Positions 1,386 to 3,536 are shown, counted from the stretch's first letter. The stretch is 64,000 nucleotides of DNA from an uncultured Acidobacteriaceae bacterium (GCA_963725225.1 CAVRXY010000016.1:91185-155184), one strand, 5' to 3'. The notes: generated from the sequence alone by a model not told the origin. A program made the numbers and translations.

Positions 1386-3536
1386 CTACCAGAGCTTGCG
1401 GTCCACGAAATCGCGGATCTCGCGTGCGGCAATTCCTGCGAGACTGGTGCGACGCACCACGATTCTCGCTGTTCCAGTCATTCCGGCCCGCAGCGAGCCG
1501 TCATTTTCGAGCAGGACATCGGCGAGATAGTCGCCCGTGCTCGTCTCTCCCTGAATCTGCTTAATAGTTTCTACCGCTGCCGGCACATGGCCCGAGGCCA
1601 TCTCGATGCGCTCAACCGATGAGTGTCGCGGCGCGAAAGTTCCATCCACCAGCAGACTCACGCGCGCCCGCGGCTGCACATGCCCGACTGCAAATTCCGG
1701 AACATAGAGCAGCGCTCGCATGATTTGCGTGTCGACCACATCGGTTATGGTCACCCCTGCATCCAGATAGCTGTCCGTCAGGTCCTTCAGCCGCGTTGCC
1801 GTGACCACACCATCGATCGGCGCACGAGCCACCAGTTGTTGTGTCTCCTCGCCGGCGATTGCGGAGTTCTTTTCCGCCTTGGCGTGCTCCTGCTCGGCGG
1901 CGCCCACGTCGCCATGCGTGAGCAACTCCTGGATGCGCGCTCCTGCAGTAAGGGCCACTTCTTTGCCTGAGGCCGCGCGAGCCGAATCAAGAGTCGCATT
2001 CGTCATCGTCAGCAACGGATCGCCGGCCTGGACATGCTGGCCTTCCTCAGCCAACACCGCGGTAACGCGCCCCGGCACCATGGCACGCACCACCGCCTGG
2101 CGCGCGGGTTCCAGCAGGAACCGCACCGTGATCGTCTCGCGCCAGAGCGGAAGAAACACAAGCATCAGAAAAATAGCCACGCCACCCACGATCCGAGGCA
2201 GGGACAGCCAGGCACGGACACGGTCACGTTTGTCGAGATACACAGTCCTCACAAACCTCAAGAGTATTTTGATCCGAGAGCGGAAAATAAGTAGCGCCAA
2301 CGCCAGCACGGGAATGAACGCCCACTGCGGGGTAAATCGGGAAAGGACGTTGTTACTGAATCGCAGGACCGTGAACAAAAGCATGTAGCTGTAAAGCCCG
2401 GAGAGAATCGCATACGTTAAATAGCCCGATCGCCGTCGCCTCGGTACGAATTCCATCTCGACGGGAAGGCGGAAGATATGCCTCCGAACCAGCCCCGAGA
2501 GATATGCTGTCGATCTCTCCTTGATGTCGGAGAAGCCGATGATCTCGGAGAACGCGTAGTACCCATCCAGCTTGATCAGCGGGTTCATATTGACCACCAC
2601 AACCGCGACTCCGGTGATCAGCATGATTTTGTATGCCAGATCGTGCGCGCCGCTTCCTGGGGGCGTGCCCCACCAGAGGATGGTTGCCACCGCGCAAAAG
2701 ATCATCTCCGCTCCGATGCCGGCGAGGATGATGAGGAATCGCTGCCAGCGTCCGGCATAGACGAACGCCTCGCTCACATCCACAAAGAAGGCCGGAGTCA
2801 GGTAGATGAGGTGGAAGCCCATCGCGTGGACCTGTCCGCCATAGTGCTTGCAGGTCAGCCCGTGTGCCGACTCGTGAAAGAACGCGAGGATTAGAAACAG
2901 CAACCAGAACTCAGCCAGATCGCCCGCAGTCTTTTGCGTAAAGTTATAGAACAACAGCGAGTCCTGCGCTATCTGTCCCCAGTTTGCGGCGAACACATAG
3001 ATCATGAACCCGAACAGAACGAGGCACACAACGCCAAACCATCGCGAATAAAGCCACTTCAGCCGGGGATAAATCCGATTGAAATATCGATCCGGATCCC
3101 AAGCTGAAAACTGCATGTGCGCCACATCGCCCCACTTCGATTTCTTGTGTGCGTGCTGATGACGGCCTTCCTCGAGTTTCTGTTGCAGTGCGATATTTTT
3201 TTCGAGGGGCGTTCTGTACCAGAAGTCGACCGCGTCCAGACCGCTGGTAAACTCGCGCAGGTCGTCGGGATCGAAGCGCGTCCCGTAGAGTTCCGCATGC
3301 AGCGCTGCCACGTCCTCCCACGATCGGGTGCCGTCAAACAGCTCGATGATTTTCCACTGTTCCGGCGGGAAGCGGAAAAAGCTGTCGCGGCCGCGAATCA
3401 TCGCCACGATCACGGGCTTCCCATCATCGCTGTTCTCCTGCCAGATAAGCCCGGGGTCGACCTTCGGATAACTGACTCGCGCTTTCCGAGCCGGCAGATC
3501 CGGCAGTGCCGCATTGAGCGCCTCGGCAAGGTTCAT
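1386..3536 (-). CDS. M50 (site-2-protease-like) membrane metalloprotease with an N-terminal PqqD/RRE-like segment and a C-terminal HlyD-type adaptor domain (716 aa)
   Basis: HESAHG zinc motif and NMNPLIKLDGYY (the S2P NxxPxxxLDG-type motif) lie in a polytopic region. The C-terminal ~270 aa resemble membrane-fusion proteins (VQAGDPLLTM ... VVTATRL ... ARIVV). The start overlaps the upstream stop by 4 bp. Confidence 0.8.
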   Translation of the reverse strand: MNLAEALNAALPDLPARKARVSYPKVDPGLIWQENSDDGKPVIVAMIRGRDSFFRFPPEQWKIIELFDGTRSWEDVAALHAELYGTRFDPDDLREFTSGLDAVDFWYRTPLEKNIALQQKLEEGRHQHAHKKSKWGDVAHMQFSAWDPDRYFNRIYPRLKWLYSRWFGVVCLVLFGFMIYVFAANWGQIAQDSLLFYNFTQKTAGDLAEFWLLFLILAFFHESAHGLTCKHYGGQVHAMGFHLIYLTPAFFVDVSEAFVYAGRWQRFLIILAGIGAEMIFCAVATILWWGTPPGSGAHDLAYKIMLITGVAVVVVNMNPLIKLDGYYAFSEIIGFSDIKERSTAYLSGLVRRHIFRLPVEMEFVPRRRRSGYLTYAILSGLYSYMLLFTVLRFSNNVLSRFTPQWAFIPVLALALLIFRSRIKILLRFVRTVYLDKRDRVRAWLSLPRIVGGVAIFLMLVFLPLWRETITVRFLLEPARQAVVRAMVPGRVTAVLAEEGQHVQAGDPLLTMTNATLDSARAASGKEVALTAGARIQELLTHGDVGAAEQEHAKAEKNSAIAGEETQQLVARAPIDGVVTATRLKDLTDSYLDAGVTITDVVDTQIMRALLYVPEFAVGHVQPRARVSLLVDGTFAPRHSSVERIEMASGHVPAAVETIKQIQGETSTGDYLADVLLENDGSLRAGMTGTARIVVRRTSLAGIAAREIRDFVDRKLW
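3219..3416 (-). other. PqqD-like / RiPP-recognition-element-like segment (residues ~41-106 of the M50 fusion)
   Basis: FRFPPEQWKIIELFDGTRSWEDVAALHAELYGTRFDPDDLREFTSGLDAVDFW aligns by eye to the PqqD pattern ([9 protein letters not shown]..V..I...L...F....VD.DV.EFL..L....W). Confidence 0.5.

Follow-up and report, generated by a model that had tools for sequence, protein, structure and literature searches.

A PqqD-like recognition element on an M50 protease-adaptor protein encoded beside a candidate repeat-peptide precursor in Acidobacteriaceae

We analyzed 64,000 nucleotides of DNA from an uncultured Acidobacteriaceae bacterium (GCA_963725225.1 CAVRXY010000016.1:91185-155184), hereafter called the window. 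Near its beginning, a minus-strand gene (1386..3536; open reading frame (ORF) call and translation) encodes a protein of 716 amino acids, which Pfam and NCBIfam scans divided into a soluble N-terminal region (residues 1-164), a membrane region and a C-terminal HlyD/RND-adaptor region. Residues ~24-105 (3222..3467, minus strand) form a RiPP recognition element (RRE; RiPP: peptide synthesized ribosomally and modified post-translationally), a PqqD-like winged helix that is predicted to be cytoplasmic. The membrane region is a protease domain of the M50 family, and a small convergent gene directly downstream encodes a candidate peptide substrate. Sequence database searches revealed thousands of homologues of the whole protein, mostly of 715-717 amino acids and mostly from Acidobacteriaceae. 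Many of these are labeled “putative peptide zinc metalloprotease protein” at JGI. The only name given to them at NCBI is “HlyD family efflux transporter periplasmic adaptor subunit”, and both the protease and the RRE are thus overlooked there.

An original prediction, made by eye from the sequence, had assigned a PqqD/RRE-like segment fused to the N-terminus of the M50 protease to PVIVAMIRGRDSFFRFPPEQWKIIELFDGTRSWEDVAALHAELYGTRFDPDDLREFTSGLDAVDFW (residues 41-106; 3219..3416, minus strand). Our translation returned the same coordinates and the same sequence, and the PqqD likeness was borne out by Pfam matches within the family, profile-profile alignment, structure prediction and structural searches. 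The proposed extent was right in part: the segment covers most of the domain, but the domain begins at about residue 24, so that strand 1 and the first residue of strand 2 had been omitted. When the N-domains of 36 non-redundant relatives were scanned singly, 11 matched the PqqD family PF05402 (best E-value 9e-6) and two matched PF21475 (PaaA-like_N). A relative with 27% identity (P0239) matched PqqD directly (E-value 2.9e-4; residues 30-89 against positions 7-67 of the 67 in the profile) with 21.5 bits, slightly below the gathering score of 23.4, and in one family member residues 65-104 aligned with profile positions 24-65.

Profile-profile comparison, the check named in the original prediction, was run with hhalign against an alignment of genuine PqqD proteins, every one of which is annotated with PF05402. 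A 209-sequence alignment of the N-domain matched it with a probability of 87.8% (E-value 3.3e-6, 62 columns); the narrower 36-sequence alignment had given a probability of only 30% before it was widened. Residues 37-100 were paired with PqqD residues 18-80, IIELFDG facing ILELVDG and DDLREF facing DDVVEF, which reproduced the alignment register that had been proposed by eye. The real alignment scored 33.5, against a maximum of 22.6 and a median of 10.1 for 30 column-shuffled controls and 13.0 for the reversed alignment. When 1.8 billion representatives were searched exhaustively by HMMER for the N-domain, the matches were almost solely the N-termini of M50-adaptor proteins of ~700 amino acids, or fragments of them, and free-standing PqqD proteins were not reached.

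AlphaFold2 modeling of residues 1-165 yielded three beta-strands (residues 30-37, 40-47 and 53-56) followed by three alpha-helices (58-64, 73-84 and 90-102). An independent AlphaFold2 model of the full-length protein (mean predicted local distance difference test score (pLDDT) of 82.6) had the identical topology, so that the three-strand winged helix sought by structure prediction was found in two models. Over residues 31-100, 10-residue blocks had mean pLDDT values of 90-92 when the N-terminus was modeled by itself and of 79-90 when the whole protein was. The first four ranks of a Foldseek search against the PDB were taken by chains of TbiB1 (5v1u and 5v1v), a lasso-peptide RRE crystallized with its leader, with probabilities of 0.98-1.00, target-normalized TM-scores of 0.60-0.68 and E-values of 0.014-0.12. 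The lasso B1 protein 6jx3_B and Xanthomonas PqqD (3g2b) followed further down, the listed RREs ranging in E-value from 0.014 to 0.9. The domain is acidic: residues 25-106 of the window copy contain 17 D+E against 9 K+R, and the median net charge of the family is -7, which complements the basic leader of the peptide described below.

The RRE is flanked by two further conserved segments. The N-terminal 15 residues, MNLAEALNAALPDLP (3492..3536, minus strand), are near-invariant in the family alignment. Their conservation across the family exceeds that of the RRE itself, yet the model has low confidence there (pLDDT ~40). This segment could have a partner-binding or autoinhibitory role. Between the RRE and the membrane, a linker (residues 106-164; 3045..3221, minus strand) consists in the full-length model of a long helix, a conserved strand with the sequence GDVAHMQFSAWDPD and a juxtamembrane helix. 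In the GDVAHMQFSAWDPD motif (residues 136-149; 3090-3131, minus strand), which precedes the first transmembrane segment, D137, W146, D147 and P148 are invariant in the family alignment and a beta-strand is predicted at residues 140-146. This strand and a beta-hairpin of the protease (residues 239-252) may form a joint substrate-binding sheet.

The membrane region (residues 165-462; 2151..3044, minus strand) is a seven-transmembrane M50 metalloprotease domain of the site-2-protease type according to Pfam, NCBIfam, hydropathy and motifs. The zinc-binding/catalytic motif HESAH (residues 221-225; 2862..2876, minus strand) lies at the predicted cytoplasmic end of the second transmembrane segment, and the second M50 motif, NPLIKLDG (residues 318-325; 2562..2585, minus strand), carries the third zinc ligand, an Asp; both were checked by translation. 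The protein thus has the two features that define M50 membership, namely HExxH in one transmembrane helix and NxxPxxxxDG in a later one. The M50 model PF02163 matched with an E-value of 7.5e-6 and a score of 25.9, slightly below its gathering score of 27.2, and several relatives exceed the threshold. Among NCBIfam models, NF041824 (daptide_HExxH) aligned residues 33-419 with positions 10-367 of 379 (E-value 1e-44), and NF058609 (YydH/LiaK epipeptide protease) aligned with residues 174-333 (E-value 1e-7). Across 36 sequences with identities as low as 21%, H221, E222, H225, P319, D324 and G325 do not vary, and N316 and N318 are nearly invariant. With these catalytic residues invariant, the protease is very likely active, as judged from its sequence. 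Hydropathy analysis gave seven transmembrane segments. K+R residues number 3, 10 and 6 in the loops predicted to be cytoplasmic, against 1, 0 and 1 in those predicted to be periplasmic. By the positive-inside rule, these counts place the RRE and the HExxH end of the second segment in the cytoplasm and the C-terminal adaptor in the periplasm.

The candidate substrate is a precursor peptide of 99 amino acids (1003..1302, plus strand), delineated by ORF, translation and homologues, in which a leader beginning with MAIQKKSLISNLKSSKVKS is followed by tandem repeats of PVLSK(S/T). The ORF is served by an AAGGAG ribosome-binding site; judged by its sequence features, it is a real gene. An ORF on the opposite strand (987-1313) was considered as a small gene and rejected, since it is the plus frame that has the ribosome-binding site, a sigma-54-type promoter and a leader shared across loci. 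No Pfam or NCBIfam model matched the peptide. The leader region, defined by positional conservation, comprises residues 1-22 (1003..1068, plus strand), and its residues 1-9, M-x-I-Q-K-K-S-L-I, are the proposed ligand of the RRE. Among 82 such peptides, M1, K5 and K6 were found in all 82, S7 in 81, L8 in 80, I3 in 67 and I9 in 66. A pattern K16-K17-A18 ... A21 follows, and conservation collapses past about residue 22. The C-terminal tails are hypervariable and lysine/arginine-rich, consisting mainly of A, K, T, S, L, V, G, P and R, and the median net charge, taken over the whole peptide, is +15. Tandem arrays with a period of 3-13 residues, usually of 5 or 6, make up the tails of 52 of the 82 peptides; the other 30 have no clear period. 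The repeat unit varies by genome (PVLSKS, VGLSKQ, GLTTSK, GTLAK, KTA, PQKLT, AGR and others). In the window, the array is an 18-nt repeat present in 5.9 copies (1150-1255). Six-frame translation of all 64 kb of the window contains a single occurrence of the leader motif. Fixed residues 1-9 followed by hypervariable repeats make up the leader/core pattern that is expected of an RRE client.

Several further observations concern the peptide genes. Compared with a 97%-identical relative (L002 10222-10539, minus strand), the window sequence is missing 5 nt and 2 nt in the repeat array (region 1200-1302), and an additional locally shifted stretch lies ~50 nt upstream of the two deletions. As a result of these indels, the reading frame of the last ~16 codons (…KKFSQDAVSRKRWCNA) is shifted, and the ORF overruns the stop codon of the relative. 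The indels could stem from genuine instability of the repeats or from faulty assembly. Eight loci (L056, L061, L064, L071, L072, L073, L078 and L083) have two to five precursor genes in tandem. In those whose precursors were read (L056 to L078), the precursors share a common leader and differ in their tails; for L083, there are five small gene calls only. The locus of the 27%-identical relative mentioned above (L084) also has a convergent repeat peptide (3489-3706, minus strand), with a mixed-charge unit, KAPFGGGAEEAR, and an N-terminus lost at the contig end.

The conservation of the locus was surveyed in the best 80 of 591 confirmed matches among GTDB species representatives; nearly all of these 80 are labeled Acidobacteriota/Terriglobia. 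The 591 matches place the system in at least several hundred species of Acidobacteriota. Granulicella sp. S190 (L004) and Tunturiibacter empetritectus M8UP27 (L005) are carriers that have been cultured. Gene order is kept: a STAS-domain gene, a GAF-adaptor gene, an adaptor gene and the RRE-M50-adaptor gene, after which come the small convergent gene and the gene of a sigma-54 activator. A leader-bearing peptide gene was present in all 76 related loci that had sequence downstream of the protease gene, always convergent and directly downstream of it, at a distance of ~150-850 bp (L001-L080). A search for the leader motif recovered 73 of the 80 loci (74 of 81 sequences including the window); two loci, L007 and L044, have minor variants, and the other five are truncated or interrupted. 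The original prediction had named the 1003-1302 product as the candidate substrate, and this constant position together with the leader/core pattern agrees with it.

All ORFs of at least 110 amino acids within ~8 kb on either side were clustered over the 80 loci. Five families only are conserved around the peptide gene: STAS, GAF-adaptor, adaptor lipoprotein, RRE-M50-adaptor and sigma-54 activator. Any further family was present in no more than 13 of the 80 loci, so that no tailoring enzyme, ABC transporter or outer-membrane factor can be a conserved part of this neighborhood. The earlier statement that no classical tailoring enzyme is present at the locus therefore stands. In one locus (L027), ~2.5 kb separate the protease and activator genes and contain a reverse-transcriptase-like ORF (…FVRYADDCNIYV…) followed by a maturase-like ORF; this insert, between the peptide and activator genes, looks like a group II intron insertion. 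The complete module was also found in bins labeled Limnocylindrales, Baltobacteraceae, Eremiobacteraceae and Eisenbacteria (L037, L045, L052 and L059). Mis-binning of acidobacterial contigs or horizontal transfer could account for them. An anti-phage defense system was considered as well and rejected: PADLOC gave no match and has no model for any component.

The C-terminal part of the 716-aa protein (residues 463-716; 1386..2150, minus strand) is a periplasmic membrane-fusion-protein domain (HlyD/MacA/MexA-like adaptor) according to PF13437, PF16576, TIGR01730 and Foldseek. PF13437 matched above threshold and TIGR01730 with an E-value of 1.6e-20. In a Foldseek search with the full model, the adaptor part matched a MacA-MexA chimera, MexA, AcrA and ZneB (E-values ~1e-13, target-normalized TM-scores ~0.7). 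The domain has the features of membrane-fusion proteins and sits after the seventh transmembrane segment, on the side poor in positive charge. The next gene upstream (3533..4450, minus strand) encodes a 305-aa adaptor (HlyD/RND_mfp) protein with a lipoprotein-type signal (…AVAGC; TIGR01730 E-value 6.6e-43, with HlyD_3 and HlyD_D23 matches). Its stop codon overlaps the start codon of the protease gene, and ORF clustering found its family in 75 loci. The first gene of this three-gene operon (4458..6866, minus strand) encodes a protein of 802 amino acids in which three cytoplasmic GAF domains precede an adaptor (HlyD) domain (GAF_2 E-value 2e-26, HlyD_D23 E-value 8e-24); this gene is kept in every locus with sequence there. 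Positions 1386-6866 on the minus strand thus hold three consecutive genes that each encode a membrane-fusion-protein domain. Beyond them lies a gene for a 115-aa STAS-domain protein of the anti-sigma-antagonist type (7060..7407, plus strand; PF01740 E-value 1.7e-13). The STAS gene is found in most loci, on one of the two flanks, and is a conserved member of the module with a variable position. Elsewhere in the window, a tRNA gene (40920-40993, minus strand) was the sole Rfam match above gathering score.

On the other side, a sigma-54-dependent activator (bacterial enhancer-binding protein) is encoded at 19..759 on the plus strand; its 5′ end is cut by the window edge, and the C-terminal part that is present matches PF00158 (E-value 2.5e-43) and AAA_lid_14. 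The activator gene is co-directional with the peptide gene and lies immediately upstream of it. The two adjoin each other in 73 of 80 loci by tblastn and in 69 loci by ORF clustering. A pattern search detected a sigma-54-type -24/-12 promoter, TGGCATTCAAATCGCA (GG-N10-GC; 919..934, plus strand), 84 nt upstream of the start codon of the peptide gene. A sigma-54-type element fitting the strict pattern lies 59-102 nt upstream in 45 of the 82 peptide genes, and anywhere within 200 nt upstream in 47. Between the convergent peptide and protease genes, a terminator scan found a stem-loop terminator with an 11-bp stem followed by a T-run (1346..1371, plus strand). Two orthologues of the activator were also examined (L081 13029-14429 and L083 13536-14585, both on the minus strand). 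A full-length orthologue gave only a weak receiver-domain match in its N-terminal region (PF00072, E-value 0.0029). Another, of 349 amino acids, has no N-terminal region, and its locus has two SpoIIE-type phosphatase genes beside the module. The position of these phosphatase genes, together with the STAS protein, suggests control by partner switching.

Taken together, the RRE is probably the substrate-selection module of an RRE/seven-transmembrane M50/periplasmic adaptor protein that acts on the neighboring peptide. Binding of the peptide leader by the RRE is probable in the same degree; removal of the leader by the M50 domain is likely, with somewhat less assurance. Coupling of these steps to export is a conjecture, one that we consider plausible without expecting it to hold, because the module encodes no inner-membrane transporter or outer-membrane factor. 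In the sequence of events that we propose, the adjacent sigma-54 activator would turn on the convergent small gene (1003-1302), and the acidic RRE would catch the basic, near-invariant leader of its product (M-x-I-Q-K-K-S-L-I ... K-K-A). The leader would probably add a strand beside beta-3, by analogy with solved RRE-leader complexes. Still tethered, the peptide would then be offered to the HExxH site on the cytoplasmic side of the membrane and would lose its leader there. The lysine-rich repeat core might exit through the adaptor domain of the protease and the two adaptor paralogues encoded upstream, and an outer-membrane channel encoded elsewhere would complete the export route. In the original prediction, the protease was taken to recruit one specific ribosomal peptide through its leader, and the locus was seen as a system for peptide maturation. 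The comparative evidence, including the RRE fold, the leader/core peptide and the daptide precedent discussed below, agrees with this view.

A number of results weigh against leader recognition by the N-domain. PF05402 matched neither the window protein nor its first 140 amino acids, even at an E-value of up to 1, and the NCBIfam scan of the window N-terminus gave no PqqD/RRE match. Sequence searches of the PDB, whether started from the N-terminus of the window protein or from a profile of 36 sequences, gave eIF2B and aminopeptidase N at chance level and no RRE. MRP-L47, an unrelated Pfam family, weakly matched 8 of the 36 relatives' N-domains, so that weak single-sequence matches alone are not decisive. 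The N-domain by itself obtained no score with NF041824, which matches the full protein only and below its cut-off. The Foldseek E-values for RREs, those of the top four included, are modest, as expected for a domain of ~85 residues. Farther along the proposed route, the ~8 kb to each side contain, over the 80 loci, no conserved pump of the ABC, RND or MFS type and no conserved outer-membrane factor. Given the missing direct Pfam match, the weak Foldseek E-values and the commonness of winged-helix folds, the resemblance to PqqD might be due to chance or be purely structural, in which case the domain would be a generic winged helix, for instance a DNA-binding one, with no part in peptide recognition. 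We regard this as very improbable: the profile-profile match exceeded all 30 shuffles, the top structures are RREs and not DNA-binding winged helices, and the acidic domain is tethered to a membrane protease and co-occurs strictly with a leader-bearing peptide.

The remaining alternatives accept a functional N-domain and differ in what it serves. Classical M50 proteases bear extramembrane regulatory domains, such as the PDZ domains of RseP and the CBS domain of SpoIVFB, and cleave anti-sigma factors. The N-domain could likewise regulate or gate a conventional site-2 protease, whose substrate would be a membrane-anchored regulator in STAS/GAF/sigma-54 signaling and for which the small peptide would be an output or a regulator. 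The module does contain signaling parts, namely the STAS protein, three GAF domains and the sigma-54 activator, with the two SpoIIE-type phosphatases in one locus. However, no membrane-anchored anti-sigma-like protein is conserved in it, the N-domain resembles leader-binding RREs and not PDZ or CBS domains, and the only other conserved product is a soluble peptide whose leader is conserved and whose core varies, which leaves this explanation unlikely. It is a little less likely still that the RRE binds the peptide but that the M50 domain or another protease cuts the array at its spaced Lys/Arg residues into many short copies, the product being a multi-core precursor of, for example, a strain-specific signal. 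Such a precursor would fit the regular arrays of 52 of the 82 cores, with one or two K/R per unit in the arrays inspected, and the fixed leader preceding units that differ between genomes, as well as the loci with two to five precursor genes. There is, however, no evidence of any cleavage site, 30 of the 82 cores are without a clear period, and the conserved genes of the module include none for a dedicated receptor or kinase.

Selection of the neighboring peptide by the RRE, the reading that we prefer, has implications beyond this locus. RREs are the most general marker of ribosomal peptide natural-product pathways, and an RRE in a pathway without a modifying enzyme suggests that leader-guided recognition also serves plain processing and secretion. 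The combination of a fixed leader as a label with a fast-evolving cationic repeat cargo suggests strain-specific antimicrobial, adhesive or signaling peptides. If functional, a site-2-type protease fused to a TolC-docking adaptor would be a new kind of inner-membrane partner in tripartite secretion. It is conceivable, although rather doubtful, that the locus encodes a new envelope machine in which the RRE-guided M50 protease is itself the inner-membrane component of a tripartite-style export system. Such a machine, to which we give the same low credence, would have a conduit of three adaptors (protease-fused, GAF-fused and lipoprotein) and would secrete strain-specific polycationic repeats under sigma-54 control, with neither a tailoring enzyme nor an ATPase. 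The system is widespread in Acidobacteriota, a dominant yet poorly understood soil phylum, and the locus looks like a self-contained, undescribed machine for peptide processing and export that is common in soil Acidobacteria.

Each part of the module has relatives among known systems. Peptidase-containing ABC transporters of class II bacteriocins and lanthipeptides (LanT) combine leader recognition, cleavage and export in one envelope machine with an HlyD-family adaptor. The likeness to them is a functional analogy only: they rely on a cysteine protease domain of the C39 type, a leader ending in a double glycine and an ATP-driven ABC pump, whereas here there are an M50 protease, an RRE-recognized leader and no ABC domain. 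The C-terminal domain shares with MacA, MexA and AcrA an architecture of lipoyl, alpha-hairpin and beta-barrel domains. Known adaptors partner with ABC, RND or MFS pumps; the present one, in contrast, is joined to a protease in a single protein and has two adaptor paralogues beside it. M50 fusions go unmentioned in a review of tripartite systems.

The N-domain shares with PqqD, TbiB1 and the lasso B1/E proteins (PF05402) the same three-strand/three-helix fold, profile homology and an association with a ribosomal peptide that has a conserved leader. The RREs of PqqD and lasso-peptide systems are free-standing proteins of ~90 amino acids that pass the peptide on, either to PqqE, a radical-SAM enzyme, or to a leader peptidase of the cysteine type and a cyclase. 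Unlike these, the present RRE is covalently joined to a membrane metalloprotease, and it is accompanied by no modifying enzyme. Strictly defined, a RiPP cluster includes a core-modifying enzyme, which the conserved module lacks, as no such enzyme is conserved nearby; one encoded elsewhere is possible. In the EpeP/YydH systems, the gene of a membrane M50 protease likewise lies beside that of its ribosomal peptide substrate, and there is weak homology in the catalytic core (E-value 1e-7). EpeP clusters also have a radical-SAM epimerase and an ABC transporter. The NF058609 model has 246 positions and aligns with residues 174-333 only, so that it spans neither the RRE nor the adaptor. The EpeP protease is thought to both cleave and export its peptide.

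A precedent is daptide biosynthesis, for which an RRE fused N-terminally to an intramembrane site-2 protease (MpaP) has been published. Like MpaP/DapP, the window protein has an N-terminal RRE followed by an M50 HExxH membrane protease, and RRE-dependent leader removal has been proposed for the daptide protease; NF041824, the model of that protease, is also its best NCBIfam match. However, the match reaches 153.3 bits against a family cut-off of 300 bits, which makes the window protein a relative and not a member. The daptide model has 379 positions and no adaptor, whereas the window protein carries a C-terminal MacA/MexA-like domain of 250 amino acids, and daptide precursors end in Thr, whereas the precursors here consist of lysine-rich repeats. 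None of the daptide tailoring genes of the DapB/C/D/M type (for a DUF-RRE protein, an oxidative decarboxylase, an aminotransferase and a methyltransferase) is conserved within ~8 kb in the 80 loci. Membership in the daptide family was therefore rejected, given the score below cut-off and the lack of tailoring genes. The open-access literature and bioRxiv gave no description of this system in Acidobacteria or of fusions of M50 proteases with HlyD-type adaptors. Thus, although an RRE on an M50 protease has already been published, the fusion with an adaptor, the class of precursor and the absence of tailoring genes appear to be new.

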